A DNA stretch of 55,974 nucleotides, filler included, from Candidatus Tectimicrobiota bacterium (GTDB lineage: Bacteria; JACPUC01): assembly GCA_016192455.1 (NCBI GenBank). It is 3 parts of 3 records of this genome, joined end to end, with 100 filler letters (N's around TTAATTAATTAA, not from the genome) between each part and the next. Parts side by side here need not be neighbours in the genome. Positions count along the whole stretch, not along the records: positions 41,441 to 55,974 come from JACPUC010000026.1; 2 more parts are not named here. One strand, written 5' to 3'. The translations under genes and the position numbers were made by a program. How positions within the stretch are numbered: the first letter of the stretch is position 1; each line of letters starts with the position of its first letter. The notes below the pieces were generated by a model. The model had not been told where the DNA came from. It saw nothing but the letters and a program-made list of their open reading frames with translations, and made no database searches. Below, in pieces: positions 13,788 to 55,856 of the stretch.

Positions 13788-16472
<2,685 letters not shown>

Positions 16473-34390: not shown

Positions 34391-34406
34391 GAGGCGCGCC
34401 GGTGCA

Positions 34407-34422: not shown

Positions 34423-34436
34423 TTCGGGAGAACCGC

Positions 34437-34465
34437 TTGACACGCCGACGGGGCTGAGATATAGA
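34437..34465 (+). promoter_or_regulatory. Putative sigma70 promoter of the bd-like operon
   Basis: TTGACA-N17-TATAGA. Confidence 0.5.
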
Positions 34466-34558
34466 AGGTGCCGCGCCGCGAGCGCCAGGCGTCGGCACAC
34501 CCCTGCGTTTCCCTGAAGATTTTGCGTCCCTTCCCTTCCATCGCCCATGGAGGCGTCC

Positions 34559-36376: not shown

Positions 36377-36421
36377 CGCCTGCCGCTGCGAAGGGGACCC
36401 GCGGGTCGTCGTGGGAGCGTC

Positions 36422-37243: not shown

Positions 37244-37259
37244 GCAGGAGAGGCCCATC

Positions 37260-38042
37260 GTGAAGAAGAGACAGCCGCCCGTCTTCTTTCTCGCCGTCGT
37301 CGCCTTCATCGTCTCCCTGCTGATCTTCCGCTTCGGCATTCGGCCGCCCATCCCTTCCAGCCTCTTCTATACTTACGTCGCTGCCACCCTCGGAGCGATC
37401 CTGCTCTGGGCCACCTCGAGCGAGGAGGCGCTGGCGGAGTTCGTGCGTCCCATCAAGGCGACCATCGTGAAGGATGACCTGCGCTGGCTGCGCCTTCTTT
37501 TCATCCTCCTGCTGCCGATCGTCATGGGCTATGTGGCGTATTCCCAGGCGAGTGTCGAAATTCAACCGCCGGCGGAGCTGCGCGTCATCCATCCGGCCCC
37601 GCCCGCCTCGATCACCGTACACGGCAAGCAGTTGGCCATCGAGGGGCTGCGCAACCCCTTGCGCGCCGCCAAGGACTTCCAGGCGAAGAAGGCCGAGTAT
37701 CTCGCCGAGGGGCGGCGCATCTACTTCCAGAACTGCTTCTTCTGCCACGGCGATAAGTTTGCCGGCGAGGGGCACTTCGCCCAGGGCTTCAACCCATCCC
37801 CCGCCAATCTTGCCGACCCTGGAACCATTGCGCAGCTTCAGGAATCCTACGTCTTTTGGCGCATCAGCAAGGGGGGGCCGGGCTTGCCCGACCAATCGAC
37901 CCCCTGGAACTCAGCCATGCCGGCGTGGGAGAACATGCTCAGCACGGACGAAATCTGGAAGGTAGTCCTTTACATTTACGAGGCGACCGACCAGCAGCCG
38001 CGCACCTGGGAAGCCGGCCACGGGCAGGAGGCGTCGAAGTGA
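37260..38042 (+). CDS. Membrane-bound monoheme cytochrome c
   Basis: Three N-terminal TM segments; CFFCH; SAMPAWE. Confidence 0.88.
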   Translation: MKKRQPPVFFLAVVAFIVSLLIFRFGIRPPIPSSLFYTYVAATLGAILLWATSSEEALAEFVRPIKATIVKDDLRWLRLLFILLLPIVMGYVAYSQASVEIQPPAELRVIHPAPPASITVHGKQLAIEGLRNPLRAAKDFQAKKAEYLAEGRRIYFQNCFFCHGDKFAGEGHFAQGFNPSPANLADPGTIAQLQESYVFWRISKGGPGLPDQSTPWNSAMPAWENMLSTDEIWKVVLYIYEATDQQPRTWEAGHGQEASK

Positions 38043-38128
38043 GAACCGCCGTGGGCGCCCATGCTCGGGCCGCGGGCATCCTGCCGCCGGCGCCGTTGCG
38101 GCGCAGCAGGGAGCAGGAGGGGAGAGGA

Positions 38129-42135: not shown

Positions 42136-44343
42136 TTACGCCGGCAGCTTCTCGACGTTGCCCAGCAGTGCCTTGTAGGACGGGAAGCCGCTGAGGGGGT
42201 CGCGGTTCTCCATGTCGGTGAGCTCGTTGACGTTGGCCTCCCGCCAGGCCTTGGGGCCGAGCGGGCCGCCGCCGCCCATGTTGGCGTCGATGACGCCTGG
42301 GCGGATGTCGTCGGTGACCTGGGCCGTGAAGACGACCTTCTTGCGGCGCGGGCTGGTAACGTAGACCCGGTCGCCGGTCTTGATGCCGCGAGCCTGGGCG
42401 TCCTTGCTGTTGATGACCACGCAGGGATCGGGGCGCCGATTCACCAGCCCGGGGATGTTGTGGTGCTGGCTGCGGAAATCCTCGTTCATGTGCGAGCCGC
42501 TGATGAGGACGAGGGGATACTCCTTGGCCAGCGCGGGGTTCGCCAGCGGCCCCTCGGTCGGCTCGGTGTAGACGGGCAAGGGGTCGATGCCGTGCTGGCG
42601 GAAGAGCCGCGAGGAGAACTCGAACTTGCCCGAAGGGGTGCGGAACCCCGGCTTGCCGTCCTTGCGCAGCTCGCCCGTCTCATACTTGCGGTAGCGCTGC
42701 TCCGGCACCGGCAGCGAGACGCCGGTCGCAGAGGCGCGCACCTCCTCGAGGGACACCGTGCTCTCCGAGAAGGCGTACCGCAGCATCTCCTCCTCGGTCT
42801 GCGGCACGAGGTGGCCGAAGCCGAGGCGGTCGGCGATGGCGGCGTAGATAAGGTAATCGTTGCGGGCCTCGCCGATCGGTTCGACGATGCGCTCGCGCAC
42901 TTGCACGTGCTGGGCCACCGTGGCGCGGTAGGGGTAGCGCTGGTAGGAGAGGATCTCGTACATCGTCGTCGCCGGCAGCACAACGTCGGCATACTTGGCG
43001 TCCTCGGTCATGAAGCGATCGATGACCCCCAGGAAGTCGAGCGCCGCCAGGCTGCGACGCCACACGTCGGGGTTGGGGAAGGAGGTGATGAGCGAGGCGC
43101 CGCCGACGAGGAGGCCGCGCACCGGGTAGGGATCGTTGTGCAGGATGGCGCGGGGCATCTCCATGAAGTGGGCGGCGCGGGTGAAGCGGCAGAAGAGCGG
43201 GAAGCGGTCGGCGCCGATGGGCGGCACGTCCTCCGGCGGATCGAAGCGCAGGAAGCGCGTCGTCGGCTGCCCATGCATGCTGTAGACCATGCCGCCGGGG
43301 ACGTCAATCTGACCCAGGAGCGCCCACAGACACATCGCCGAGCGGATGTTCTGCACGCCGCTGTTGGTGTATTCGAGGCCCGTGTAGGAGACCAGCGAGG
43401 CGGCGCGGGCACGGCCCAGGTCGCGCGCCAGGGCGCGGATCGTCGCCGCCGGGATGTCGCAGATGGCCTCGGCGCGTTCCGGACGGAACTGCCGCGCGTA
43501 GTCGCGCAGCTCCGCGAAGCCTTCCGTCCAGTTCTCCACGAAGTCGTGATCGTAGAGGTCCTCCTCGATGAGCACCTGCATGAGGCTGAGGGCCAGGGCG
43601 CCGTCGCTGCCGGGCCGCACCGGAATCCACTGGTCCTCTTGCCTGGCGATCTCCGCCCGGCGCGGGTCGATGAGCACCACCTTGGCGCCGCGCTGCCGCG
43701 CCGCCTCGATCTTGCGCCGCAGGTCGGGCGGCGAGTCGGTGACCGGATTGGCCCCCCAGATGATGATGAGGTCGGAGCGCTGCACATCGGGGAACCAGGC
43801 CATCCAGGGCAGGCCGGTGGTGGCGTAAGGGGCCATGACGCGCAGGGACATGGCGCAGAGCGAGCTGACGCCGCCGGCGTTCGGCGAACCGAGCAGCGCC
43901 AGCAAGCCGATCGACGATGAGGTGAGGGTGCCGGTGGGGGAGAAGAAGTCGCCGATGGAGTGCTCGAAGTTGCCCCGCCCCCCGTAGGCCGCCAGGGCCC
44001 TGCCGCCGTGCTTCTGAGCCACCTGCTTCAGCCCGGCCGCGACGCGATCGAGGGCTTCATCCCAACTGAGGCGCTCGAGCTTCCCCTCGCCCCGCGCTCC
44101 CACGCGCACCATGGGGTAGCGCAGGCGATCCGGAGAGTAGACGATCTCCTTCGAGTACTCGCCGCGCAGGCAGACGATCCCCTTCGGGTGGTCTTTCAGC
44201 GGCGCGATGGAGTCGATCTTGCCGTCGACCAGTTGAATCTCCACTCCGCAGCCCTCGGCGCAGATGCCGCACAGGCCGATCTTCGTCTCTCGGCGCGTCG
44301 CCTGCGATTCCGACGTTGCTGTAGCTTCGAGTATTCCCGCCAT
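42136..44343 (-). CDS. Molybdopterin/tungsten oxidoreductase (acetylene hydratase-like group), substrate unknown
   Basis: CGICAEGC...CLRG, LSWDEALD, SLC (candidate ligand), PGSDGALA, ADVVLPA, GFRTPSGKFE, ANVNELTD...DPLSGFP; no Tat signal. Confidence 0.88.
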   Translation of the reverse strand: MAGILEATATSESQATRRETKIGLCGICAEGCGVEIQLVDGKIDSIAPLKDHPKGIVCLRGEYSKEIVYSPDRLRYPMVRVGARGEGKLERLSWDEALDRVAAGLKQVAQKHGGRALAAYGGRGNFEHSIGDFFSPTGTLTSSSIGLLALLGSPNAGGVSSLCAMSLRVMAPYATTGLPWMAWFPDVQRSDLIIIWGANPVTDSPPDLRRKIEAARQRGAKVVLIDPRRAEIARQEDQWIPVRPGSDGALALSLMQVLIEEDLYDHDFVENWTEGFAELRDYARQFRPERAEAICDIPAATIRALARDLGRARAASLVSYTGLEYTNSGVQNIRSAMCLWALLGQIDVPGGMVYSMHGQPTTRFLRFDPPEDVPPIGADRFPLFCRFTRAAHFMEMPRAILHNDPYPVRGLLVGGASLITSFPNPDVWRRSLAALDFLGVIDRFMTEDAKYADVVLPATTMYEILSYQRYPYRATVAQHVQVRERIVEPIGEARNDYLIYAAIADRLGFGHLVPQTEEEMLRYAFSESTVSLEEVRASATGVSLPVPEQRYRKYETGELRKDGKPGFRTPSGKFEFSSRLFRQHGIDPLPVYTEPTEGPLANPALAKEYPLVLISGSHMNEDFRSQHHNIPGLVNRRPDPCVVINSKDAQARGIKTGDRVYVTSPRRKKVVFTAQVTDDIRPGVIDANMGGGGPLGPKAWREANVNELTDMENRDPLSGFPSYKALLGNVEKLPA

Positions 44344-45115
44344 ACGCACTCCTCTCGGAGATAACGAACAAGCTCCCGGCCTCGCGCAGGTGTGTCAGAC
44401 GCTCTCCGCCCGGAGCCCACCCGCCGCCACCGATGAAAACGTCACACAATCGCCCGGAATAAGCGCTTCCGGCCTGGCGAAGAAATCGCCCTCTGGGAGG
44501 AGGCTGCGGCGGAGAAAAAACATCTCCTGACTCGTGGGAATCGCCCCGCGCGCCAGAGGATGTGAGTTTTTAGGATGACATGAAGCTCGCCGCGGCGCAA
44601 GCCCAACTTCCCGGCCACTGCTGAGGTCCACCCACCTGACGAGGGAAAGAGGCGGCGGCGCTCCCCTGGCATCTCGCCTCGCCTGCTGCCGCCTCTCCCG
44701 TGCCGAGGCGGGCCCCTCCCCGGGCAGCCGCATTGCGCCGCTTTCTGGAGAGCGCCCAGTTCCTTGAAGGAGTGATCCGAGTCCTGCTCATCAGGGACTC
44801 CCTGCCGCGAGGGATCTCTGCCTCCCATCTCTCGACTTCCAGGCGTGACCGCGAAGGCGCGCGGTTTCGCAGCTCGCGGCGGAACGCGCCGGAAGGAGCG
44901 CACCCCTCGCCCGCCAGGTGCGGATTTGCAAGCCGAGCGATGGTTCGCCCGTAGGCTCAAACCGCGCGTCGCGAGCAGGGGCCGCGCGGGGCACGCCACC
45001 GGCCCGCGCCCCGCCGGGGCTGTAACGGAGCGCAGTCAACGGCGGCGGAGGTAGCCGCTGCTCACCCTCCCGCATTCTGTCCAGCCCATGGGCAAGCATG
45101 GGCGCTAATTTTTCC

Positions 45116-45176
45116 TTGACAGATTTTCCAGCCCACCCTAAAGTACCTTTGATCAGTAGATTAAAAAGGTCCTTTA
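45116..45176 (+). promoter_or_regulatory. Sigma70 promoter overlapped by an inverted-repeat operator upstream of the Rrf2 gene
   Basis: TTGACA(45116)-N17-TAAAGT(45139); TAAAGTACCTTT (45139-45150) and AAAGGTCCTTTA (45165-45176) are inverted with one mismatch. Confidence 0.7.
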
Positions 45177-45182
45177 CATCTA

Positions 45183-45635
45183 ATGAAACTGAACCGCGAA
45201 AGCGAGTACGGCATCCGGGCGCTCATCTTCCTGGCTAGGCAGGGGCGGGAGAGGGTGCTGATGGCCAGTACGGTCGCCCAGGAGCAGGATCTCCCGCAGG
45301 GGTTCCTGGCGAAGATTTTCCAGAAACTCACTCGCCATGGCGTGCTGCGATCCTACCGCGGCAAGCAGCGCGGCTATGCCTTGGCCAGGCCGCCAGAGGA
45401 GATTGCTCTGAAGGAGGTCGTGGAAGCCATTGAAGGGCCGGACCTCATGGACCGCTGCATCTTCTGGAGCAACCGCTGCCCTACCTCCACGCCCTGTCTG
45501 CTGCACGAGTGGTACAAGGAGATCAAGCCCCAGTTCGACCAGATGTTGAGCCAGACCACCCTGGCTGCGGTGGTGCAGCAAGAGGCGTCCCTCTCAGCTC
45601 TGCGTCCTGCGATCGAGCCCAAGCAGGCGGGCTGA
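45183..45635 (+). CDS. Rrf2-family transcriptional regulator (Fe-S-binding type)
   Basis: EYGIRAL, FLAKIFQKL, SYRGKQRGYALARPPEEI, EAIEG, C-x6-C-x5-C-x2-H. Confidence 0.93.
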   Translation: MKLNRESEYGIRALIFLARQGRERVLMASTVAQEQDLPQGFLAKIFQKLTRHGVLRSYRGKQRGYALARPPEEIALKEVVEAIEGPDLMDRCIFWSNRCPTSTPCLLHEWYKEIKPQFDQMLSQTTLAAVVQQEASLSALRPAIEPKQAG

Positions 45636-45914
45636 GGCCCACCCAGGTCGACGCCGGGCCGGCTTGGGGGGCGGCTCGTCGCCTGTCCTGGTCTCCTTGC
45701 CCTCGAACGGCGCGATGCCGCACCCCAGCAAGCAACGAGCCTGGACGTGTATTGCGGTGGAGCTCCCCGCCTGACGTTCCAGGAGACGATGCATGACGCC
45801 GAGGACAAGGAAAAAGGCCCCATTCGGCCGCCTCTCGCGGTGAAGGGGGGTGAGATCGGCGTTCACCTCGACGGGCAAACGTTTTGGAGCGCTTTCTTGG
45901 AGGAGGACAGCTCT

Positions 45915-47270
45915 ATGAGTGGGAGAAAATTGGTCCATCTCGTGAGCCTCATTGTCATCGCCGTTCTCTTCGTTCCCGGCTGGAGCGCCGGCGTGGCCGA
46001 AGCGCAGGAGCGCCGGCTCGTCTATCGCCCCTACGATGTCGGCGAGGTAGATCACGGCAGCCCCGCGCCGGCGACGCCCGCCGCCATTCAAGCAGGCCAA
46101 CGGCTCTACGGGACGAACTGCTCTCGCTGCCACGGCGTGGAAGGCAAGGGGGACGGCCCCACGGCCTACCTCATGAACCCCAAGCCACGGAACTTCGCCC
46201 AAAGACTCTACAAGCTTCACTCCACCCCAAGTGGTCAGCTTCCCACCGACGCCGACCTCTACCGGACGATCACGCTGGGGATGCCGGGGTCGGGCATGCC
46301 TCCCTGGAAGGGCAAGCTCAGCCAAGAGGAACGCTGGCAGCTCGTGCACTACATCAAAACCCTCTACCCGAAATGGGCAGAGGAGGTGAAACGGGAACCG
46401 CTGACCCCGATCGGCATCCCCAAGCCGATGCCGACCTCGGCGGCAAGCATCCAGAAGGGGAAAGAGTTCTACGCCTCGCTGGAGTGCGCGAAGTGTCATG
46501 GAAAAACCGGCAAGGGCGACGGCCCCAGCGCGAATGAGCTGAAGGACGACTGGGGGGACAAGATCCTCCCCACTGACCTGACCAAACCATGGTTCTTCCG
46601 CGCTGGGTCAAAGCCTGAGGATATCTACCGCGTCCTGGTGGCCGGGGTGCCAGGCAGCCCCATGCCATCCTGGGCAGACCTGCTGCCGCAAAACTCGGAC
46701 CTCTGGCACGTGGCCAACTACGTCCTGTCGCTGGCGGAAGGGCAGCCGCCTACGCCGGTGCTGATCGAGACGTTGAAAGGACCCACCTTGGGCGTGAAGG
46801 CGTTCGAGTCGGCGGCGAAGACCGGCTCGGCGGCCGGCAAACCCGAGGTGGTCTTCGATGTAGTCGCCAGCGGCTGGGAGATGTGGATCATGAAGGACGG
46901 CGCCTACCTGCCGCGCGTCAACGGCCTTGCCCAGGCCGGCCACGAGATGCAGGTGAAAAAGGGGCAGGTGGTGCAGATCAACTTCTGGCCGACGGAGAAC
47001 GGCCTGGGCGCTCCCTATGGCCATGGCTTCTCCATCGAGGGCTACGATGACCGGCTCTTCGGCCTGCAGACCGCGGCAGGCCCGGGGGGCGGCTCGGGGG
47101 CCGCCTACCTCGAGCGTCCCCTAGCCTACCGCTTCATCGCCGACCGGGATGGAGAATTTCCTTTCTACTGCTCCGTGCAGTGCGATCCAGGTCAGAGCGA
47201 CGAGATCAAGAAGCTGACCGGCTTGTGGGGCCACGTTTACATGGGCGGCACCTTCCTGGTGAAGCAGTAG
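45915..47270 (+). CDS. Secreted diheme cytochrome c with a C-terminal cupredoxin (CuA-like) domain
   Basis: Signal peptide; CSRCH and CAKCH; VKKGQVV...HGFSI...FIADRDGEFPFYCSVQC...GHVYMGG; GGAGGAGG RBS. Confidence 0.85.
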   Translation: MSGRKLVHLVSLIVIAVLFVPGWSAGVAEAQERRLVYRPYDVGEVDHGSPAPATPAAIQAGQRLYGTNCSRCHGVEGKGDGPTAYLMNPKPRNFAQRLYKLHSTPSGQLPTDADLYRTITLGMPGSGMPPWKGKLSQEERWQLVHYIKTLYPKWAEEVKREPLTPIGIPKPMPTSAASIQKGKEFYASLECAKCHGKTGKGDGPSANELKDDWGDKILPTDLTKPWFFRAGSKPEDIYRVLVAGVPGSPMPSWADLLPQNSDLWHVANYVLSLAEGQPPTPVLIETLKGPTLGVKAFESAAKTGSAAGKPEVVFDVVASGWEMWIMKDGAYLPRVNGLAQAGHEMQVKKGQVVQINFWPTENGLGAPYGHGFSIEGYDDRLFGLQTAAGPGGGSGAAYLERPLAYRFIADRDGEFPFYCSVQCDPGQSDEIKKLTGLWGHVYMGGTFLVKQ

Positions 47271-47358
47271 CGCTCCCGAGGCTTGCAGCGCGGCACACCA
47301 CGTGTCGTTCTCCGGTGAGGGAAGGACCTTGTTCCCTGACTCAAAGGGGGGAGGCAAG

Positions 47359-49227
47359 ATGAGAGGGTATGTGAGATTCTTGCTTGCTGGGCTGATCCTG
47401 GGGATCGCGATCCCCCTTCTCATGGGCGCCGCAAAAGACGAGAACCCGGCGGAGGTGATCTACCACGGCCCCTTCGAGCGCGACGCCTACTACATGTTCT
47501 CGAGTAGCGGCCAGTCCGGGGGAGTATTCGTCATCGGCATCCCCTCGGGGAGGCTGTTCATGGACCTTCCCGTCTTCGAGCCCCGGCAGGCCTATGGGTA
47601 CGCGGGCATCGGCACGCCGGAGCGGGAGATGCTGGAGAAGACCGGCGGCCTCTGGGGAGACACCCACCATCCCCGCTTAAGCCACACCGGCTGGAAACCC
47701 GACGGCAAGTGGCTCTACATCAATGACAAAGCCAGCACGCGGGTGGCGAAGATCGACCTGCGGACCTTCCGCACGGTCCTCATCAAGAAGGCCCCGAACA
47801 CGCAGGTCTGGCACGGCATCGCCCTGGTGCCCGACCGAAACGGCACCACCAAGTACGTCTGCGCCAATGGCGAGTTCGAGGCCCCGATTCCACCACGCCC
47901 GGGGCTGCCGGGCGGCTACTCGGAAAAGCTGATCCCGCCGATCGGTGCCAAGGTTCCCGACGACTGGAAGAGCCCCGTCACCTGTCTGGACGCCGAGACG
48001 CTCGATCCGGTCTTCCAGGTGATCAGCGGCTACGGCAACTTCGATATCATGGATAACTCCCCCTCCGGCCGCTGGCTTCTCTCCAACATGTACAACACCG
48101 AGAAGGGCGCGAATATCGACGAGATGATCAAGGCCCCCGAGGACGTGACGCAGTTCCTCGATGTGTGGAAAGCCGAGGAGGAGCTGAAAGCGGGGAGGTT
48201 CACCCTGGTCAACGGGGTGAAAGTACTGGATGCGCGCCAAAGCCCGGGGCTGATCTACCTTCTCCCCACCCCCAGGAACCCGCACGGGATCCACTGCCAA
48301 CGCCTGGATACCCGCGTGCATGGCGAGAAGTCCCTGGGCAAGGATACAGTCTGCATCTCCGGCGGCAAGCTGGTGCCGCGGGTCTACATCTACGATGTCT
48401 CGGGAGACCGCCCGAAGCTGGTGAGCACCCCCTGGGTCGGCCTGGGTCCCCTGCACGTGCAGTACGACGGGCGGGGGAACTTCTACGTGTCGCTCTTCGT
48501 CGACAGCCAGATCGGCGCCTATAACATCGAGAAAGCGATCAAGTTCCCCAACGATCCGGACAAGTACACCGTCGACAAGATCGACATCCATTACAACGTC
48601 GGTCACCTGAGCACGGTGATGAACTACTCGACCCCGAAGGGGGATTGGCTCATCTCGCAGAACAAAATGACCAAGGGCCTTCCCGGCTTCCTTCCCACGG
48701 GTCCTCTGGAGCCGGAAGTTCAGGAGCTGATCGATATCCGCAAGATCACCGCCGACGGCAAGGGAAAGATGCGGCTCATCTACCAGTTCCCGACGCCGCC
48801 CGAGCCGCACGAGTCCGACTTCGTGGAAGCGGAGAAGCTGGCGCCGTTGGTCTGGACGAAGTACAAGAAGCCATATAATGAAGCGATCAAGTTCGTCGGC
48901 CCGGGCGAGTCGCGGGTGGTGCGCAGCGGGCCGAAGAACGTCGATGTCTACCTGACCGCGGTGCGCAGCCGTTACGGACTGGACGAGGTGCGGGTGAAGC
49001 AGGGGGATACGGTCACCCTCTACCTCTCAAATATCGAACGTCTCCGGGACGTCACCCATGGGTTTGCGCTGCAGGAGTATGGCGTCCATTTCGCCATCGA
49101 CCCGGGCGACACGCAGAAGTTCACCTTCGTGGCGGATAAACCCGGGGTGTACTGGTTCTTCTGCACCTGGTTCTGCAGCGCTCTGCACATGGAGATGCGG
49201 GCCAAGCTGATCGTGGATCCAGCCTAG
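47359..49227 (+). CDS. nosZ: Nitrous oxide reductase, non-Tat (Sec-type leader), divergent
   Basis: Seven CuZ His in order (DTHH, WHG, PHG, PLH, VGH, EPH); CuA site HGF...CTWFCSALHMEM; hydrophobic leader without a twin-Arg motif. Confidence 0.92.
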   Translation: MRGYVRFLLAGLILGIAIPLLMGAAKDENPAEVIYHGPFERDAYYMFSSSGQSGGVFVIGIPSGRLFMDLPVFEPRQAYGYAGIGTPEREMLEKTGGLWGDTHHPRLSHTGWKPDGKWLYINDKASTRVAKIDLRTFRTVLIKKAPNTQVWHGIALVPDRNGTTKYVCANGEFEAPIPPRPGLPGGYSEKLIPPIGAKVPDDWKSPVTCLDAETLDPVFQVISGYGNFDIMDNSPSGRWLLSNMYNTEKGANIDEMIKAPEDVTQFLDVWKAEEELKAGRFTLVNGVKVLDARQSPGLIYLLPTPRNPHGIHCQRLDTRVHGEKSLGKDTVCISGGKLVPRVYIYDVSGDRPKLVSTPWVGLGPLHVQYDGRGNFYVSLFVDSQIGAYNIEKAIKFPNDPDKYTVDKIDIHYNVGHLSTVMNYSTPKGDWLISQNKMTKGLPGFLPTGPLEPEVQELIDIRKITADGKGKMRLIYQFPTPPEPHESDFVEAEKLAPLVWTKYKKPYNEAIKFVGPGESRVVRSGPKNVDVYLTAVRSRYGLDEVRVKQGDTVTLYLSNIERLRDVTHGFALQEYGVHFAIDPGDTQKFTFVADKPGVYWFFCTWFCSALHMEMRAKLIVDPA

Positions 49228-49289
49228 GGTCCGCGCCACGATCGAGGGCGGAGGGGAGGAGGCCGCCTCTCCTCCGCAGGGGAGAAACG

Positions 49290-49688
49290 GTGCGGCGCCT
49301 GGTGCTTCTTGGGATCGTGGTGATCGCCGTCGGTGGGCTTGCGGGTACCGCGCTGCTGCTTTTCCGCTCGGGCTCGCCGGCGGGGCCGCAATGTCCGTTG
49401 TCGTTCTCTGAGTTCGCGGTGGCCTCGAAGGCGGGGAAAATCCGCGTCAGTGGCCAGGCGGGGTACGCCAATGGCGCTCCCTTCGCCAAGGGCCCGGTGC
49501 TGCTCAATCTGACCTTCGTGATGCCGGGATGCGGCGCCCTCCCCTTGACGGCAACGACGGAAGGGGATGGACGCTTCCTCGTTGATGCCTCGCCGACCGA
49601 TGCCGCCTGCGCGCAGCAGGGCGGCACGGTCACCGCCAGTACGCGCGCCGGCTGTTCCATCGAGGGCATGACGCAGGGAGAGTGGTAG
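49290..49688 (+). CDS. Hypothetical exported/membrane-anchored small beta-rich protein with four Cys
   Basis: GGAG RBS, N-terminal hydrophobic helix, TATTEGDGRF beta motif; stop is 1 nt before the next ATG. Confidence 0.6.
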   Translation: MRRLVLLGIVVIAVGGLAGTALLLFRSGSPAGPQCPLSFSEFAVASKAGKIRVSGQAGYANGAPFAKGPVLLNLTFVMPGCGALPLTATTEGDGRFLVDASPTDAACAQQGGTVTASTRAGCSIEGMTQGEW

Positions 49689-49689
49689 G

Positions 49690-50286
49690 ATGAGAACGCC
49701 CGTTCGGATGGCGAATCTCTTGTGCCTCGGGGCGGCCCTGCTGATCGGCGCTTCCTTCCTCACGCCGCTCTGGTCGCTGACGGCACAGGCCGTTCAGTAC
49801 AAGATGGACTTCCCGCAAGGGCTGAAAGTCTACCTCTACCTCTGGAAGATCGCCGGCGAGATGTATGAGCTCAACCTCATGAACAAGTGGATTGGGGCCC
49901 ATTTCCCGGAGCGCGCCCTTGAGATGATCCTCTTCCCAATCCTCTTTGGGGGGGTGGCCCTTGCCTGCGTCGCCTGCCTCTTTCTCAGCCGCTGGAAGAA
50001 GCGCGCCTTGATGGCGGCGCTCCTCGGCCTGCTCCTGCTTACCCTTGTCGGGCTGGTCAGCCTGCAGGGCCGGCTCTATGCATTCGGGCATGTGCGGGAC
50101 GCCAACCCGCCGATCGTGGTTCCTGATTTCACCGTCCCCATCCTGGGAACGATGCAGCTCTGGAACTGGACCATCAGCACCGCCTTCGGCGTTGGCGCCT
50201 ACATCCTGGCCCTCGCCGCCCTCCTGCTCGCGCTGGCTTACGTGGTCACCGCCAGGGAGGCGCGGAACGAGCGGACGTGGTCATGA
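49690..50286 (+). CDS. nosB: NosB-like membrane protein
   Basis: PLWSLTAQAVQY...PQGL...ELNLMNKWIG, LYAFGH..D.NPPI.VPDF..PILG..QL.NW pattern of the clade II nos membrane protein; four TM helices. Confidence 0.78.
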   Translation: MRTPVRMANLLCLGAALLIGASFLTPLWSLTAQAVQYKMDFPQGLKVYLYLWKIAGEMYELNLMNKWIGAHFPERALEMILFPILFGGVALACVACLFLSRWKKRALMAALLGLLLLTLVGLVSLQGRLYAFGHVRDANPPIVVPDFTVPILGTMQLWNWTISTAFGVGAYILALAALLLALAYVVTAREARNERTWS

Positions 50287-51695
50287 AGAAACCCGTCATC
50301 ATCCTCGGCCTCGTCATCCTCCTCGCCGCTCTCTTCGTGACCGTGGGCCTCTACTTCATTCCCAAGCTGAAAGTGAAAGCGGAGCTGGCGGGGGGGCTGG
50401 GGGAGTTCCTGAAATCCGATGCGGACAAGGTGCGCCGGGCCAGCGACATCTACATCGACATCACCTTCGCCAGCGACGCATTCCTGAAGCGCGTGCGCCT
50501 GCAAGAGTACATCGGCAAGTACCGCTACGGGCAGCCGTTCCTCGTCTCCCTGAACACCCATGCGGGTAATCTCGAGGGCATTGTCAGCCTGGAGGGGAAG
50601 ATTTTCCTGCTCGACGATCATGGCAACCGCTATCCCCACCTGGGGAGCCCCATCATGACGTCCCTGCACCACAACACGTATCTGCTGATCTTCCCCAACG
50701 TCGATCACCAGGGGAAGCCCCTCTTCAGCGCCGACCGGAAACACTTCAGCATCAAGGTGAGCGGCATCCCCCCCATCGAGCAGCGCGAGTTCACCTGGCG
50801 GCTCCCGCTGCAGACCGCCATCCCCGCCGCCACACCCTGGGAGGCCTGGACGCGGCATCTCATGCTGGCCCTGGCCCTCATCGGCGCCCTCACCATCACG
50901 CTCTCCCCCTGCGCCCTGAACGTCAGCGCCTTCTATAGCGCCGTCCTCGCCACCACCCTGGGACGCCCGGACATGGCGGCGATCTCCGACCGGCAGGTGA
51001 AGCGTGAACTGCTGCGCATCCTCATCCCCTTCGCTCTCGGCTTTGTCATCCTGTTTTCCGCCGGCGGCGCCCTCATCGGCCTCACCGGAAGTGTCCTGCG
51101 CAACCCACTCGAGCAGCTTGGCAGCTTCTGGTCGTATATCCGGGTGGGCGCCGGGCTCCTCATGTTCTACCTCGGTTTGAAGCTCATTCTCTTGGCCCTC
51201 GCCAAGAGAGGCGCCGGACGGCTGGCCATGGCAATGGGGCGGCTATGGCGCCGCGGCCTCGCGAAGGCCTTCAGCCTGATTTCCGGAGAGAGGTTACCGG
51301 CCGAGCCGCAATCCTTCCGCGACACCCCCTTTACGCCCCTCTCCTCCCTTCTCATGGGCGTCGCCCTCTCCACGGAGTGCGCCATCTGTCTCGGCACGGG
51401 CATCTTCTTCCCCTTGGCGGTCTATGCCGGAACAACCTCCTGGTACTGGGGCATGGCGGTCCTCGGCGCCTTCTCCGTGGCCCTCGTCATCCCGATGCTC
51501 CTCGTCGCCATGGGCGTGCGTGATCTGCGGCTGACCCTGCCGAAGAAGCTCACAATCATCCGCACGCTCAACATTGCCGCCGGGCTGATCATCGGTTTTG
51601 TGGGCATCGAGTTGATTCGGGACGCTGATCCGCACCGCTTTACCAATCTCATCCTCAACGTCGTCTTCGGTGGAAGCGCCTGGCTATACCGTTAG
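50283..51695 (+). CDS. CcdA/DsbD-like transmembrane thiol-redox protein with an N-terminal extracytoplasmic domain
   Basis: TLSPC in the first core TM helix, FALGFVILF, second Cys site ECAIC; ATGA overlap with nosB. Confidence 0.75.
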   Translation: MKKPVIILGLVILLAALFVTVGLYFIPKLKVKAELAGGLGEFLKSDADKVRRASDIYIDITFASDAFLKRVRLQEYIGKYRYGQPFLVSLNTHAGNLEGIVSLEGKIFLLDDHGNRYPHLGSPIMTSLHHNTYLLIFPNVDHQGKPLFSADRKHFSIKVSGIPPIEQREFTWRLPLQTAIPAATPWEAWTRHLMLALALIGALTITLSPCALNVSAFYSAVLATTLGRPDMAAISDRQVKRELLRILIPFALGFVILFSAGGALIGLTGSVLRNPLEQLGSFWSYIRVGAGLLMFYLGLKLILLALAKRGAGRLAMAMGRLWRRGLAKAFSLISGERLPAEPQSFRDTPFTPLSSLLMGVALSTECAICLGTGIFFPLAVYAGTTSWYWGMAVLGAFSVALVIPMLLVAMGVRDLRLTLPKKLTIIRTLNIAAGLIIGFVGIELIRDADPHRFTNLILNVVFGGSAWLYR

Positions 51696-51719
51696 CGATC
51701 ACCTGGGCAGGAAGGCGCC

Positions 51720-52148
51720 ATGCGCGAAGCCTACAGTGTTGGAGCCAAGGCTACCCAGGTCCAGGAGACCCTCACGGGGTATCGACTGAGCCTGGTGGCG
51801 ACGCTGGCGTGTCTGGCCCTGGCCCTTCTGGCTATGGTGGATTTCCGCCGCGGCTTCCTGTTTACCGGCGCGACAGATTTCGGCCGCTACGTCCTCAGCA
51901 CGCCCTCCTTCCGGTTCAGTCCATGGCACCTCCTGATGCTCGGCATCGGCCTGGCGGGGTTTGTGAGCTCTCTTCGCAGGCTTCAACGCTGCGAGGCGGA
52001 GCTGCGTGGAGAGAAACTGGAGGGGGTGACGCGCTGGCTGGCGGCGGGCCTCTTCGGCTTGCTGGTCGTGGACCTGTTTACCTACCGCGGGGTGCCGACG
52101 GTGCGCGCCGCGTTGGCGGGGATCGCCGCCGGCGCGCTGTTCCTGTAG
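51720..52148 (+). CDS. Hypothetical membrane protein, possibly truncated
   Basis: AGGAAGG RBS, 3-4 hydrophobic segments, same strand as the operon. Confidence 0.6.
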   Translation: MREAYSVGAKATQVQETLTGYRLSLVATLACLALALLAMVDFRRGFLFTGATDFGRYVLSTPSFRFSPWHLLMLGIGLAGFVSSLRRLQRCEAELRGEKLEGVTRWLAAGLFGLLVVDLFTYRGVPTVRAALAGIAAGALFL

Positions 52149-52243
52149 TCCGCCGCTCGCCGGGCTTCCTCTTCAACCGTGAGGTGGATCTTCGCACCTC
52201 CTCGCGGAGAACTCCCCGACCTAGAACCAGAGGATCGCGAGCC

Positions 52244-52822
52244 GTGTATCAGGTCGTGCTGATCTTCCACATTGTCAACGTCGTCCTGATGGCCGCGCCC
52301 TACTACAACCTCGTCGTCGTGAGCGAGCGGAGCAAATTTGGCCCGGCGCACGTGCAGGTGGACCGCTACTTCGAGCAGATCGTCAGGGGTATCCTCTTCC
52401 GCTGCTACTTCATCCAGTGGAGTGTCCTCCTGCTGGGACTTCTCCTCGTCGGCCTGCACAACAACTGGAGCTTCCAGTCGCTGCTCACGCAGTGGCAACT
52501 GCTGATCAAAGAAGCAGCCTGGGTGGCGATCATGGTGGTGCATAACCTCGTCTACTTTGGCATCCAGCCGCGCATCGAGGCGCTGTTGCGGGGGCTCCAG
52601 GGAGAATCTATCCCGCCCGAGATCACCAGCCGTGTCACAACCCTGCGAATCCGCAGGAAACAGGGGGCCGCCGCCTGCTTTTTCTTCGTGCTGGTGGCGG
52701 TGATCATGGGGGTCCAGATCAGCCGGCCGCTTGGCCCCGGAACCACGGTGGCGCTCACCCTCCTCGCCCTCCTCTTCGCCTGGCGGGCGTATCGCAGCGG
52801 TGTGCAGTATGGCTGGGTCTAG
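52244..52822 (+). CDS. Hypothetical integral membrane protein with intramembrane His residues
   Basis: GTG after GAGGA; about five TM helices; IFHIV in TM1 and LLIK...VVH in TM3. Confidence 0.7.
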   Translation: MYQVVLIFHIVNVVLMAAPYYNLVVVSERSKFGPAHVQVDRYFEQIVRGILFRCYFIQWSVLLLGLLLVGLHNNWSFQSLLTQWQLLIKEAAWVAIMVVHNLVYFGIQPRIEALLRGLQGESIPPEITSRVTTLRIRRKQGAAACFFFVLVAVIMGVQISRPLGPGTTVALTLLALLFAWRAYRSGVQYGWV

Positions 52823-53474
52823 GAAGGCGGCAGCCCTTCTCGTTCTGCTCCTCGCCGTTTCACCAAGAGCCGCAGCGGCCCACACACCGGACTGGGTCAG
52901 CCACCTCTTCGAATGGGTCCTGGGAAAGAAGGCCGCCGTCGGCGAGGCTCCTTCTGCCGGCTGGCTCGAACCCGAGCCGGCGCACGACTTCCGGCTGCTG
53001 GATCAGGAGGGCGGCGAGAAGACACTGCGGGACTATCGCGGCAGGGTGGTGGTGATGAATTTCTTCCACGCCACCTGCGGGAACACCTGCGGCAGCATGA
53101 AAGAGCTGAGAATCCTGGCAAGGAGTCTGGGGAAGAAGATGGGCGCCGAGGTGGTCTTCCTCTCCGTGAGCCTCGATGCCGCGGAACACCCCTCCGGGGA
53201 GGCGGGAACCTTTGACCGGCAATGGCGGATGGGCCCACGATGGCAGCTCCTGCACGGTCCGTCCGCGGCCATCGAAGAGCTGGCGAAAGCGTATGGCGTA
53301 TATTTCAAGAAGATCGAATCCGCCGAGGGGAAAAACGCTCGCACTGTCGAGTACAGCGACGTGATCCTCTTTCTCGATCAGCAGGGGAGGCTCCGCAAGC
53401 GGGTGCTGCCGCATCTCCTGCAGCTCAGCGGACGCGAAGATGTCGGGTGGCTGCTCCAGCAAGCTGCCCATTGA
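52809..53474 (+). CDS. SCO/SenC-family protein lacking the conserved His
   Basis: Signal peptide; FRLLDQEG, CGNTC, FLSVSLD, VEYSDVILFLD. Confidence 0.82.
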   Translation: MAGSRKAAALLVLLLAVSPRAAAAHTPDWVSHLFEWVLGKKAAVGEAPSAGWLEPEPAHDFRLLDQEGGEKTLRDYRGRVVVMNFFHATCGNTCGSMKELRILARSLGKKMGAEVVFLSVSLDAAEHPSGEAGTFDRQWRMGPRWQLLHGPSAAIEELAKAYGVYFKKIESAEGKNARTVEYSDVILFLDQQGRLRKRVLPHLLQLSGREDVGWLLQQAAH

Positions 53475-53497
53475 GGATACAGCGTGAGGATACCGAC

Positions 53498-54424
53498 ATG
53501 GCAATAACCAAGTGGCGTTGGTCCAGGAAGGGTGTCGCGCGGCTGGCGGGTGTGCTGGCCTTCTTCGCTGTTGGTCTGGCCGGCGGGGCCATACTCTCGC
53601 AGCGACTGGTGTTCGGCACCAACGGGGGGCCGGTCCCGAAGCTCAGCGAGGTTGCCGCCAGCCCTGAGCAGATCGACCAGCTCAACCCCTCCTCGCTCCC
53701 TCCCATCGGCATCTCCCCCGTGCCGCCCAGGGCGCAGGAGGGTCGGAGCCCGCAAGTGTCCGCCGACCCGGCGCCCACGTCGGCCGCGAACCTGCACGCC
53801 GATGGGGGGCATGCTCAGCCCGCCGACCCCGGCGGCGCAAAGGTGGACAACCTCACCACCATACCCTGGGCTGATCCTTACCCGGCCTCCCCCTTCAGCC
53901 TAACCGACCAGGATGGCAGGCTCGTTGCGCTCAACAGCCTCCAGGGCAGGGTTGTGGTCTTGAGCTTTCTCTACACCCACTGCAAGACCGTCTGTCCCCT
54001 CTTGGCACGGCAGTTGACGCAGCTCCAGCATGATCTCGGCCCCTTGATGAGGAGGGACATCCTCTTCCTGTCGGTCACCATCGACCCGAAGCGCGACACC
54101 CCCGAAGTGCTGAAGCGGTACGGCGAAACGCTCGGCATTGATTTCAGGAGTTGGCGGCTTCTCACCGGCCCGGAGGAGAGGGTTCAGGAGGTTCTGCGGG
54201 CCTATCGCGTCCACGTCGAGGTGGAGAAGGAGCCGCACGGGCCCCAGCAGGGGGAGGGCTACGAGCTTGCCCATGGCGCCCCCATCTACTTTATTGATCA
54301 GTGGGGGCGCGTGCGCAAGCGCACCGCGCCCACCATGCTGCCGCGCCTCGGTCAGCCGGCTCTCGAGTGGTTGGTGAAGCAGGGTGCGAGCGATACGACC
54401 AACGGCAAGGGGGGCCGCCACTAA
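53498..54424 (+). CDS. SCO/SenC-family copper chaperone
   Basis: N-terminal TM helix and Pro-rich linker; FSLTDQDG, YTHCKTVCP, SVTIDPKRDTPE, LAHGAPIYFID. Confidence 0.9.
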   Translation: MAITKWRWSRKGVARLAGVLAFFAVGLAGGAILSQRLVFGTNGGPVPKLSEVAASPEQIDQLNPSSLPPIGISPVPPRAQEGRSPQVSADPAPTSAANLHADGGHAQPADPGGAKVDNLTTIPWADPYPASPFSLTDQDGRLVALNSLQGRVVVLSFLYTHCKTVCPLLARQLTQLQHDLGPLMRRDILFLSVTIDPKRDTPEVLKRYGETLGIDFRSWRLLTGPEERVQEVLRAYRVHVEVEKEPHGPQQGEGYELAHGAPIYFIDQWGRVRKRTAPTMLPRLGQPALEWLVKQGASDTTNGKGGRH

Positions 54425-54672: not shown

Positions 54673-55683
54673 CTAGAAGGCAATCTCTTTCGGCATGTGC
54701 GAGAAGACCGTATCGATGTGCTGTGCGGCTTCCGCGGGCAGCAACCCGAACTCGATGTTCTTCCGCAGGAAGAGCTTGGTGCTCTCCAGGAGCTTGGGGT
54801 TCCAGGCGCTCGGATACATGCGGGGGAGCATCTTGACCATGAGCTGCATCTGCGCCTCGGTCTTGATGCCGAGTATCTCCTTGGCGGCGGCGAACGTCTC
54901 GGCGGGGTGCGCCCTGACAAATCCGAGGGACTCCGCGATGGTCCGCACGAGGCGCTGCGAGCGTTGCGGGTTCTCCTTCACCCAGCCCTCATCCACGCCG
55001 ACGGCCACCGAGGTGAGGAACTCAGCGCCGGTCAGGTCGGTCCAAATCTCACCCAGGTTCGCCAACTCCCGGAACTCGCCGTCCGCAATCTTGCGGATGG
55101 TATTCTGGTCGGACTGGATGACTCCCGCCAGCTCCTTCTTCAAGAGAAGCCCCTGCAGCACCTGCGGAGCCCCGAAAACCAGCTTGAAGTCATTGTCGAT
55201 GTCGATGCCGCGCATCTTCAAGATGAGCTTGGCGATGTTGTAGATGCCGGTGACCTGGGAGAGGGACCCCACCCGCTGACCCTTCAGATCGGCAAAGCTC
55301 TTGGCGGGGGAATCGGCGGGCACCACCACGCTCCAGTGCGAGGTCATGAGCGGGGCGATGATGCGGATCGGGTTATTTCGCGCATTGGCGCGCACGGCCG
55401 CGACGACCCCCAGGATGCCGGCATCCACGTTCTTCTGCACCAGCGCCTGCATGGCCCGGTCCGGGGGAAAGCTCTTCAGATCGAGATCGATGCCGTTCTT
55501 GGCGTCGAACTGCTTGCTTTTCGCGATGCTCGTCACCACGCCGACGACGCTGCCGGTGGTGGCGAAGACGACCTTCTCCGCCGCCGCTGCTGGTTGCGCC
55601 GCTCGCGCCAGGAGCAGCGCACCCATGACCGCTACGACGGCGAGCCTCCCGGTGACGCCCCCAACGCTCCTGCAGGTACCCAT
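54673..55683 (-). CDS. ABC transporter substrate-binding protein (SsuA/NMT1/TauA-like)
   Basis: Signal peptide; [44 protein letters not shown]. Confidence 0.85.
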   Translation of the reverse strand: MGTCRSVGGVTGRLAVVAVMGALLLARAAQPAAAAEKVVFATTGSVVGVVTSIAKSKQFDAKNGIDLDLKSFPPDRAMQALVQKNVDAGILGVVAAVRANARNNPIRIIAPLMTSHWSVVVPADSPAKSFADLKGQRVGSLSQVTGIYNIAKLILKMRGIDIDNDFKLVFGAPQVLQGLLLKKELAGVIQSDQNTIRKIADGEFRELANLGEIWTDLTGAEFLTSVAVGVDEGWVKENPQRSQRLVRTIAESLGFVRAHPAETFAAAKEILGIKTEAQMQLMVKMLPRMYPSAWNPKLLESTKLFLRKNIEFGLLPAEAAQHIDTVFSHMPKEIAF

Positions 55684-55856
55684 GCTCCCTCCCTTGCCAG
55701 ACACCCTGGTCGATACGGTCGAGGCCATTGCGCCTCTCATGCGGCGCATCCGTCCTTGCAAGGAGAACCCTCTTCGAAGCAGCCGTTGCGCTCGCGCTGC
55801 GCCAGCTCTCAGCGCCAGGTTGCCCTCGCAAGGCACGCTGCGAGATATTTGCCGGA

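Follow-up and report, generated by a model that had tools for sequence, protein, structure and literature searches.

The gene cluster at positions 45183-54424 of the window (the whole stretch of 55,974 nucleotides that was analysed) is, on balance, likely to be a real and conserved variant of the Sec-type (clade II-like) nos operon in which the CuZ site of nitrous oxide reductase (NosZ) would be filled without NosDFY. The evidence consists of the gene content and synteny of the operon, the selection acting on its genes, the conservation of its copper ligands, and the absence of NosD and NosL matches in both the window and G001, the closest genome compared (NosZ 86% identity, labelled Ca. Methylomirabilales).

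Organization of the operon

The cluster had been described in the first-pass annotation as ten co-oriented genes with several overlapping or abutting ends, bounded on both sides by opposite-strand genes, and the ORF reading of the window bore out each of these points (Table 1). All ten plus-strand ORFs (g1-g10) were confirmed, and with corrected starts the gene spacing is operon-like, with a gap of 1 nt between g4 and g5, an overlap of 10 nt between g5 and g6, and a gap of 24 nt between g6 and g7. No internal stops were present in the nine ORFs other than g7, and the operon looks intact. Comparison of seven operon genes with their G001 orthologues gave dS values of 1.1-1.6 and dN/dS values of 0.07 (nosZ), 0.14 (g6), 0.17 (g2), 0.20 (g4), 0.23 (g10), 0.26 (g9), and 0.32 (g7, the highest of the set); purifying selection acts on the operon genes compared.

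Table 1. Features of the nos operon and its flanks (positions in the window)
Feature	Position	Strand	Description	Evidence and start
Upstream boundary	42136-44349	-	Molybdopterin oxidoreductase	Pfam Molybdopterin 147 bits, Molydop_binding 77.5 bits
g1	45183-45635	+	Rrf2-family regulator, 150 aa	Pfam Rrf2 114.5 bits, TIGR00738 116.7 bits, both above cut-off
g2	45747-47270	+	Membrane-anchored diheme cytochrome c + CuA-type cupredoxin fusion	Two Pfam cytochrome c stretches; true start probably 45915 (MSGRKLV...)
g3	47302-49227; true start 47359	+	NosZ, nitrous oxide reductase	Profile matches, ligands, structure alignment
g4	49290-49688	+	132 aa, one N-terminal membrane helix + beta-sandwich, four invariant Cys	
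g5	49690-50286	+	198-aa polytopic membrane protein, nosB position of Sec-type nos operons	
g6	50277-51695	+	472 aa, N-terminal anchor, periplasmic beta-sandwich, multi-helix membrane domain	
g7	51720-52148	+	142-aa in-frame remnant of PF03773 (ArsP/YraQ-type) permease	
Deletion junction	52110-52122	+	13 nt fitting both sides of the missing 927-nt permease segment	
g8	52244-52822	+	192-aa four-helix membrane protein, DUF2269/CopD/DUF4149-like	GTG start, AGAGGA 9 nt upstream
g9	52731-53474	+	Exported thioredoxin-fold SCO/TlpA-like protein	SCO1-SenC 49.7 bits, AhpC-TSA 35.6 bits; true start likely 52809
g10	53222-54424	+	Membrane-anchored SCO-family copper chaperone	SCO1-SenC 108.1 bits; true start likely 53498
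Downstream boundary	54673-55836	-	NMT1-like periplasmic binding protein	Pfam NMT1 48 bits

Nitrous oxide reductase, regulator, and presumed electron donor

Nitrous oxide is a greenhouse gas. The nosZ start at 47302 in the first-pass annotation was rejected in favor of 47359 (MRGYV...), which gives a protein of 622 aa. This protein matched nos_propeller in Pfam (72.5 bits) and TIGR04244 and TIGR04246 in NCBIfam (451 and 410.6 bits, both below the cut-off of 625), and was aligned end to end with the solved clade I NosZ 5i5i (E 6e-108). Its N-terminus is Sec-like and lacks both a twin-arginine motif and a lipobox. The seven CuZ histidines and the CuA ligands are all invariant in the clade (H122, H123, H171, H328, H385, H435, H503, H586, C621, C625, H629, and M632 in nine members), which argues against the modified active site that had earlier been offered as an option.

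Nine relatives are 66-98% identical to this NosZ and the next sequences are at most 49% identical. Monophyly of the clade has an SH-aLRT support of 100, its stem measures 0.62, the lipoprotein-type NosZ clade is its sister (support 87), and the Tat-type group falls outside both; the subfamily is small, deeply branching, and from groundwater and soil metagenomes.

Upstream of nosZ, in the subfamily as in the sister clade, lies g2, the presumed electron donor to NosZ, whose homologues share an invariant GHG...YCxxQC...HxxM pattern in 34 aligned sequences; the cupredoxin domain gave no Pfam match in this sequence, though its CuA-type ligands are conserved. Three clustered cysteines (C-x7-C-x5-C, by eye) are present in g1, and the sister-clade operon likewise has rrf2 in front.

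Absence of nosDFY and nosL

NosD, an ABC ATPase, and NosY had been reported as missing from the cluster, and tblastn of the entire window with NosD, NosF, and NosY from the sister-clade locus L015 matched nothing at E <= 0.01; this search covered the 56-kb window of a source contig of at least 277 kb. The reported lack of NosL, NosR, and NosGH-type genes also held, as none of the ten ORFs matched the NosL, NosR, or NapGH-type families in Pfam and NCBIfam. The same nosDFY-less gene order was found in G001 at ~75% DNA identity, divided between two contigs, and a search of that whole genome gave no match to TIGR04247, PF05048, the L015 NosD protein, or NosL PF05573. G001 is a fragmented 2.7-Mb MAG in which RecA, SecY, and RpoB were each found once, three markers being a weak completeness check. 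Of three control genomes of the phylum, G140 and G208, whose NosZ is ordinary, scored above cut-off with PF05048.

The sister clade keeps nosD-nosF-nosY at the position where the window operon carries other genes. The order in L015 is rrf2, cytochrome c, nosZ, a g5-like gene, a g6-like gene, NosD (158.7 bits), an ABC ATPase, an ABC-2 permease, and a CusF-SCO fusion, which in the sister clade stands 3' of nosY. NosD lies 1.7-2.2 kb 3' of nosZ in 26/26 sister loci whose flank reaches 1.9 kb or more, and follows nosZ in 31/31 Tat-type loci that have 0.9 kb or more (within ~150 nt, once at 2.5 kb).

The gene set without nosDFY was seen again in relatives: besides G001, it is carried by contigs X5 and X7 from two further studies and, judging by g4 and the permease on contigs of equal size, by a 7,561-bp JGI contig. 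By the same reasoning, NosZ and the permease would share contigs of 8,667 and 31,269 bp. This recurrence, together with purifying selection, argues against the suggestion that the cluster is a one-off product of decay. Among the nine closest NosZ relatives, operon context covers all but five (P0002, P0005, P0007, P0008, and P0009), so that the loss of nosDFY may be confined to part of the NosZ clade. The sole hint of context for P0006 comes from a different contig, on which a MAG with the same label has a permease, and the 74-kb contig of P0007 is equal in length to none of those of the 120 permeases listed of 193.

Genes in the nosDFY position

The 'two membrane proteins' of the first-pass annotation do correspond to two ORFs, although one (g7) is a permease remnant and the other (g8) a DUF2269/CopD-like protein. 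Of the permease, g7 retains ~126 residues at the N-terminus and ~13 at the C-terminus, 309 of 451 codons having been deleted; the remnant has no Pfam match and aligns at 61% identity with the stretch 12-126 of the G001 permease (448 aa). PF03773 is present in the full-length permeases P0127 (451 aa), P0125, P0123, and P0122, and this permease appears to have replaced nosDFY in the relatives. The X5 contig (8,667 bp) matches 46872-52122 and 52110-54419 with 914 extra letters between, ~6% of positions differing. The deletion junction is spanned by the X1 and X3 contigs with no differences, and the X7 contig is collinear over 49964-52281 with 160 differences (6.9%) and no gaps; the short permease form has thus persisted, since this contig of another study carries it.

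The exact 192-aa sequence of g8 is present in the Atlas, where its nearest clusters are DUF2269 (0.95) and CopD/DUF4149 (TM 0.63-0.75), and it has no Pfam match. It occurs in the X5 strain and was not found in G001. The added genes are not a fixed set, given that G001 lacks g8 and that the permease is mostly deleted in the window and X7.

Other accessory proteins

No Pfam or NCBIfam match was obtained for g4, which falls in only 8 clusters among 5.8 billion, is absent from 46/46 sister-clade loci, and is specific to this NosZ subfamily. Its C35, C81, C107, and C122 are invariant and its AF2 model (pLDDT 67.9) is all-beta. Binding of g4 to NosZ is predicted: the modeled complex had a median score of 0.79 against 0.00 for the best control (partner pLDDT at least 79), with one of three runs scoring 0.00 and contact agreement between runs of at least 0%; 58 of 80 solved complexes attained the mark, as did 2 of 110 mismatched pairs.

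Homologues of g5 (27-34% identity) lie directly 3' of nosZ in sister-clade loci and in no Tat-type locus; g5 itself matched no family in Pfam or NCBIfam. The sister clade also has g6, at 31-36% identity. Its beta-sandwich has three invariant histidines and its membrane domain SPC and CxxC motifs (H95, H131, H132, S210-P211-C212, C368, and C371, invariant in nine aligned sequences). The g6 model has pLDDT 63, with fold matches at noise level (DUF4426 Z 8.3, CrdA Z 7.6). Its earlier description as CcdA/DsbD-like has weak support, a DsbD_TM match at E 0.038 in one of nine family members. Family and fold searches gave no family match supporting a function for g4, g6, or the permease.

Two SCO proteins had been claimed, and g9 and g10 both match SCO1-SenC. 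Weak TlpA and ResA matches in NCBIfam and a CxxxC motif were found in g9 (55% identity to its G001 orthologue), with the histidine at the SCO copper-ligand position missing by eye; in g10, a histidine lies downstream of a CxxxCP motif (by eye). Because the sister clade has g5, g6, and SCO in addition to nosDFY, these genes are not necessarily its replacement.

Comparison with known systems

In clades I and II, copper is delivered to NosZ by the NosDFY-NosL machinery. The window system has the same task, namely filling CuZ and CuA in exported apo-NosZ, but none of the four components was detected in the window or G001. Sco/TlpA/CcdA-type CuA maturation serves cytochrome oxidase subunit II, and building a CuZ site is not a known role of such factors. 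Its likeness to the window operon lies in g10 (SCO), g9 (SCO/TlpA-like, with CxxxC), and the membrane cysteine motifs of g6, whose relation to CcdA is a candidate one; two CuA-type targets, NosZ and g2, are encoded here. An essential role of NosDFY-NosL in copper delivery is given in the available text of PMC13685413.

The Sec-type clade II clusters of Verrucomicrobiota and Acidobacteriota (e.g. Opitutus terrae and Luteitalea pratensis), represented here by sister-clade loci L010-L053, L065, and L074, comprise nosZ, transmembrane genes, nosDFY, and SCO in the portion of PMC13122619 available. The window operon shares with them, in the same order, rrf2, cytochrome c/CuA cupredoxin, nosZ, g5 (NosB position), a g6-type gene, and SCO, as well as a NosZ without a Tat signal; the DxHH and EPH motifs have the forms reported for clade II in the accessible part of 10.1101/2024.01.15.574570. 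Unlike the sister loci, it lacks nosD, nosF, and nosY, its NosZ is 42-48% identical to theirs on a long separate branch without a lipobox, and it carries g4, the PF03773 permease, and g8 (each in 0/46 sister loci) and a second thioredoxin-fold protein, all confined to this subfamily in the comparison. Clade III L-NosZ clusters, as described in the available text of PMC13685413 and PMC13477213, likewise have a nosZ-type gene without nosDFYL and pose the same CuZ-assembly question. The window NosZ differs in being full-length and canonical (L-NosZ model 140.6 bits, mostly from the C-terminal cupredoxin, where the cut-off is 700), and the b-type cytochromes and ABC/MacB-type transporters which those sources describe are absent here.

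Proposed route and alternatives

The ancestor common with the sister clade would have carried rrf2, cytochrome c/CuA, nosZ, a nosB-like gene, g6, nosD, nosF, nosY, and SCO. In the subfamily the nosDFY block would have given way to the PF03773 permease, with a CopD/DUF2269-like protein in some strains, and the clade-specific, anchored 4-Cys g4 and a second thioredoxin-fold protein would have been added. Electrons would reach NosZ via g2, and g10 would load the CuA sites, being kept reduced by TlpA-like g9 and possibly by the cysteine pairs of g6. CuZ would be filled without NosDFY or NosL: g4 would dock on the propeller of NosZ, and Cu(I) or reductant would come from g6 and/or the permease. Because the permease is a 142-aa remnant in the window strain, either it is dispensable or enzyme maturation is impaired. 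The first-pass interpretation is partly supported; all of the copper- and electron-delivery steps and independence from NosDFY are what we infer.

An ordinary Sec-type nos cluster with relocated maturation genes, nosDFY (perhaps with nosL) being unlinked elsewhere in the genome, is unlikely. The 56 kb that were searched belong to a contig at least 277 kb long, G001 may be incomplete, and NosF/NosY-like genes distant from nosZ are described for clade III MAGs in the available part of PMC13477213; however, in 57/57 other NosZ loci with enough flank the distance between nosZ and nosD is under 2.6 kb, and other conserved genes fill its position in at least four independent assemblies. The four negative NosD/NosL queries in G001, set against two of three positive controls, weaken this option of the first-pass annotation without refuting it, G001 being a fragmented MAG.

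Decay in the window strain, with the permease deletion marking an outgoing system or a NosZ without working CuZ, seems quite unlikely: the full-length gene in an X5 strain differing at ~6% of positions, the loss of 309 codons, and the top dN/dS of g7 would fit it, but the deletion preserves the reading frame, the remaining nine ORFs are intact, the short form persists without gaps on X7 at 6.9% difference, and NosZ combines the dN/dS of 0.07 with every ligand kept. Hardly probable is the lack of any dedicated replacement, the extra genes serving CuA loading, tethering, and electron transfer while CuZ draws on general copper/sulfur pools or housekeeping chaperones. Known CuA factors include SCO and TlpA-type proteins, g5, g6, and SCO accompany nosDFY in the sister clade, and the permease was dispensable enough to be deleted. 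Sister NosZ proteins are lipoproteins, whereas in this clade the lipobox was lost and the anchored g4, which could be a mere tether, was gained. Against this, nosDFY loss abolishes CuZ in the clade I enzymes covered by the available text of PMC13685413, and g4 and the permease were gained when nosDFY was lost in the clade. On the favored reading of a conserved Sec-type variant, the usual copper-site assembly genes are replaced, and an N2O-destroying enzyme may therefore be built by an undescribed route.

Gene content of the operon

The first-pass annotation had described ten co-oriented nos-region genes (g1-g10) without nosDFY, and this description was borne out by ORF and family scans, by opposite-strand genes on both flanks, and by tblastn of the window. 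The g1 product scored 114.5 bits against a cut-off of 30 for the Rrf2 family (PF02082) and fell under the equivalog cut-offs of NsrR, IscR, and RirA in NCBIfam. Two further ORFs were recorded outside the operon: a 634-aa ORF about 6 kb upstream of it, and a 1,111-aa ORF that may be a spurious frame over plus-strand genes, the DNA being 65% G+C. Short contigs of other organisms pile up at 45000-45500 and 49100-49220, with depth spikes and joints, and these stretches appear to be conserved or repeated sequence common to other community members.

Features of the nos operon and its surroundings, in window positions
Feature	Position	Strand	Assignment (basis)	Start site
1,111-aa ORF	34016-37351	-	no Pfam match at E <= 1e-5	
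634-aa ORF	37856-39760	+	cytochrome c domains and EB_dh (ethylbenzene dehydrogenase gamma-like, heme-binding)	
Molybdopterin oxidoreductase	42136-44349	-	flanks operon	
g1	45183-45635	+	Rrf2 regulator (Pfam, NCBIfam)	
g2	45747-47270	+	two cytochrome c domains (Pfam, NCBIfam)	45915 (probable)
g3 (NosZ)	47302-49227	+	NosZ (family scans)	47359 (alignment with nine relatives)
g4, g5, g6, g7, and g8 frame	49290-52822	+	no family match (Pfam/NCBIfam)	
g9	52731-53474	+	SCO1/SenC-fold	52809 (probable)
g10	53222-54424	+	SCO1/SenC-fold	53498 (probable)
NMT1-like binding protein	54673-55836	-	flanks operon	

Absence of nosDFY and nosL

No Pfam or NCBIfam match to NosD, NosF, NosY, or NosL was obtained among the ten ORFs, and the NosD, NosF, and NosY proteins of the reference sister-clade locus L015 gave no tblastn match across the whole 56-kb window. 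The window locus does not hold a canonical nos operon, for which nosD, nosF, nosY, and usually nosL are expected with nosZ. Among comparison loci with enough flanking sequence, nosD lay near nosZ in 57 of 57. In the sister clade, all 26 loci whose downstream sequence extends 1.9 kb or more have NosD 1.7-2.2 kb after nosZ; in the Tat-type group, NosD came after nosZ in all 31 loci where the flank is 0.9 kb or longer.

The order rrf2, cytochrome c/cupredoxin, nosZ, g5-like, g6-like is common to the sister clade and the window, and is continued in L015 by NosD (PF05048, 158.7 bits), an ABC ATPase, an ABC-2 permease, and a CusF-SCO fusion. By this comparison, the window operon is the same operon with its nosDFY block exchanged. 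None of the 46 sister loci carried g4, the permease, or g8. At 8621-10342 of L015, one 573-aa ORF spans the Rrf2 domain as well as the diheme cytochrome c/cupredoxin, perhaps through genuine fusion, perhaps as an artefact of an upstream start.

Classification and relatives of NosZ

We take the CuZ ligands to be the seven propeller histidines, and the CuA ligands to be H...C-x3-C-x3-H-x2-M in the C-terminal cupredoxin domain. Residues H122, H123, H171, H328, H385, H435, H503, H586, C621, C625, H629, and M632 were invariant in an alignment of nine clade sequences, so that the window protein, with positions assigned by alignment, has the CuZ and CuA ligands of a NosZ. It aligned end to end with the solved NosZ structure 5i5i (E 6e-108), and the ligand motifs coincided.

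Three named classes were tried and rejected by score. The clade I TAT-dependent model (TIGR04244) gave 451.1 bits against a cut-off of 625, and the N-terminus (MRGYVRFLLAG...) has no RR, in contrast with the SRRQ or RRx found at the N-termini of Tat-type loci. The clade II Sec-dependent model (TIGR04246) gave 410.6 bits against a cut-off of 625, and the clade III L-NosZ model (NF052460) gave 140.6 bits against a cut-off of 700, its best stretch being residues 548-639 only. A twin-arginine motif and a lipobox are both absent from the N-terminus. Clade II-like traits of the enzyme and its operon are a Sec-like signal, a gene at the nosB position, and the DTHHPR and EPHE motif forms, which one source reports for clade II (10.1101/2024.01.15.574570).

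In a tree of 44 sequences, the window NosZ clade was recovered with an SH-aLRT of 100 on a long stem (0.62), and its sister (support 87) was a clade with lipoprotein-signal NosZ, both lying outside the Tat-signal group. Labelled clade II references, e.g. Wolinella or Bacteroidota, were absent from the tree, so that the clade II-like placement comes from the signal type, the motifs, and the order of genes and not from phylogeny. Several of the sister-clade proteins (P0034, P0043, P0046, and P0054) bear the name 'TAT-dependent nitrous-oxide reductase' in a source; at the loci examined (L010-L053), their clade has L-x-G-C lipoprotein-type Sec signals and no twin-arginine motif, and it was apparently the HMM score, not the signal, that determined the name.

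A search of 5.8 billion protein clusters returned about ten NosZ relatives at 66-98% identity, the next being at 49% or less. The close relatives are labelled Ca. Methylomirabilales, Ca. Tectomicrobia, and, in one case, an 'Alphaproteobacteria' MAG. Among 251 genomes of the phylum of G001, the nearest genome examined, this NosZ type was found in G001 only; a scan of genome contigs for close relatives likewise returned G001 alone, plus two Halomonas loci. A metagenome scan with the subfamily alignment returned 80 loci, all at 48% identity or less.

Recurrence in G001 and other contigs

It had been proposed that close NosZ relatives be examined for the same gene set, and the nosDFY-less order was indeed found again in G001, whose NosZ is 86% identical. 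There the operon is split over two contigs that abut within g5, one with cytochrome, nosZ, g4, and g5, and the other with g5, g6, a 448-aa PF03773 permease, an SCO-like gene, and an SCO gene; no nosDFY is present. Further pairs were linked indirectly through contigs of equal length: NosZ P0001 with permease P0127 (8,667 bp), NosZ P0004 with permease P0125 (31,269 bp), and the g4 relative P0242 with permease P0122 (7,561 bp).

Positions 1-40,000 of the window matched G001 DNA in scattered patches of 66-74% identity on many contigs, with no synteny shown. On G001 contig C44 (locus L096), both SCO genes are followed immediately, at 10522-12852 (minus strand), by a gene for an HPP-family membrane protein (193.5 bits) and by a pair of genes for PCP_red-domain proteins; the window has an unrelated binding-protein gene in this place, and the surroundings of the operon thus differ between the two genomes.

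Accessory proteins of the operon

The C-terminal domain of g2 keeps GHG...YCxxQC...HxxM, the ligands of a CuA-type site, in all 34 aligned homologues. Counting the CuA of NosZ, the operon has two CuA-type sites that must be filled, in keeping with the presence of the SCO protein g10 and the SCO/TlpA-like g9. The g10 product belongs to SCO1/SenC (PF02630; 108.1 bits against a cut-off of 22.8) and shows, by eye, a CKTVCP motif and a later histidine. The g9 product scored 49.7 bits for SCO1/SenC, gave weak TlpA/ResA matches in NCBIfam, and has CGNTC with, by eye, no histidine at the aligned place, for which reason it may be a TlpA-like reductase. An SCO gene in Sec-type nos clusters has been described previously (PMC13122619). 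The g5 product is called NosB-like from its position after nosZ and its membrane character.

The g6 product, a 472-aa membrane protein, has a periplasmic beta-sandwich with three invariant histidines, and its membrane motifs SPC212 and C368-x2-C371 are invariant. It had been annotated as CcdA/DsbD-like (PF02683), a family with two conserved membrane Cys; a DsbD_TM match appeared in one of nine family members, weakly (E 0.038), and no convincing fold match was found. Its model had a middling pLDDT of 63 with the membrane part at low confidence, Foldseek returned no match at E <= 0.001, and the best VIA wide results (Z 8.3 for DUF4426, 7.6 for CrdA, 6.5 for FtrA-P19), among them metal-binding sandwiches such as CrdA and P19, are at noise level, in a range common for unmatched models. 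Six of seven aligned sister-clade g6 homologues, L012 being the exception, contain a loop some 45 residues long in which Cys and His are conserved (CG..P...GH.NHG; columns ~330-375 of alignment A2, the L015 gene being at 12856-14388); this loop is absent from g6 of the window and of G001.

The protein-cluster search found g4 in eight clusters only, all of this lineage, with four invariant Cys. It is predicted to be an anchored beta-sandwich; Foldseek gave no match at E <= 0.001 beyond generic Ig-like sandwiches, and Atlas scores were 0.87 at most. The predicted complex of g4 with NosZ had a median score of 0.79 against 0.00 for the best control, with partner pLDDT of at least 79, one of three runs scoring 0.00 and contact agreement between runs being at least 0%; 58 of 80 solved complexes attained the mark used for such scores, as did 2 of 110 mismatched pairs. 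The predicted interface lies on the NosZ propeller (residues 242-244, 266, 278-284, 311-322, 360, 372-378, and 416-419), and the model supports a putative binding of g4 to NosZ.

Permease remnant and g8

The first-pass annotation had listed two membrane proteins after g6. Of these, g7 is a permease remnant and g8 a four-helix protein. In its 142 aa, g7 joins the initial ~126 residues of the permease to its final ~13, so that it holds ~139 of ~450 residues and gives no Pfam match, while the full-length relatives P0121-P0127 have PF03773 (ArsP_1/YraQ). Public assemblies of the probable source study showed 0 differences from the window. An 8,667-bp contig of a second study (X5) aligns to 46872-52122 and, after 914 extra letters, to 52110-54419; these letters supply a full-length permease, and g8 and both SCO genes come next; the permease lengths differ by 927 nt (309 codons), and 13 nt are common at the junction. 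A contig of a third study (X7) is collinear with the window over 49964-52281, with 160 differences and 0 gaps, and hence has the short form. The permease deletion is thus a real polymorphism, and its short allele has been maintained over ~7% divergence.

The g8 gene has a GTG start at 52244 with an AGAGGA box, and encodes 192 aa. No Pfam match was obtained and it was not found in G001; in the Atlas it resembles DUF2269/CopD/DUF4149 clusters (feature score 0.95, structure TM 0.63-0.75).

Interpretation and alternatives

The explanation we prefer, at slightly better than an even chance, is a lineage-wide variant of the Sec-type nos operon in which nosDFY was lost, nosL was never in the cluster, and g4, a PF03773 permease, and a second thioredoxin-fold protein were gained, NosZ being matured by another route; its copper and electron steps we infer. 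The fuller proposal is tentative and falls appreciably short of an even chance: that an undescribed pathway, with no part for NosD/F/Y/L, matures a canonical-fold, clade II-like NosZ, and that in this pathway the NosZ-binding 4-Cys g4, the His-triad/Cys-motif g6, and, in most strains, the PF03773 permease would act, with the SCO/TlpA-like proteins handling CuA.

An unlinked nosDFY elsewhere in the genome is unlikely in our view. Searches of G001, a genome of unreported completeness in which RecA, SecY, and RpoB are each found once, gave no match to TIGR04247, PF05048, a sister-clade NosD protein, or NosL (PF05573), and NosD exceeded its cut-off in two of three control genomes, which belong to the phylum of G001 and have an ordinary NosZ. 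Somewhat less likely again is decay of the operon in the window strain, which the permease deletion suggests. Between the window and G001, dS was 1.1-1.6 and dN/dS was 0.07 for nosZ, 0.14 for g6, 0.17 for g2, 0.20 for g4, 0.23 for g10, 0.26 for g9, and 0.32 for the retained part of g7, which indicates that the nosDFY-less operon has long been kept under selection. It is quite improbable that nosDFY has no dedicated replacement at all.

Implications

To our knowledge, NosZ is the sole biological sink of N2O, and CuZ assembly, including the sulfide source, is still unresolved. The enzymes of clades I and II are considered unable to do without NosDFY. Reviews and surveys describe nosDFY(L) as conserved in both of these clades, with clade III alone lacking it (PMC13685413, PMC13477213, PMC11828985). 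Full-text literature searches for nosZ clusters without nosD gave only the clade III statements and a review, and no description of the subfamily or gene order; supplementary tables, e.g. the nos contig tables of PMC11828985, could hold such clusters.

The finding appears to exceed routine annotation, and its central claim, maturation without NosDFY, is put forward from sequence. If true, the classical NosZ family would have two independent ways of assembling CuZ. A nosDFY-less classical NosZ with every ligand kept would offer a compact gene set of ~9 kb in which an alternative assembly route could be sought. Many metagenomic pipelines demand nosD, nosF, and nosY, so a natural NosDFY-free NosZ would alter how surveys score 'functional' nosZ. 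N2O reduction would also join the traits attributed to a groundwater relative of the Methylomirabilales, which are known mainly for NO dismutation.
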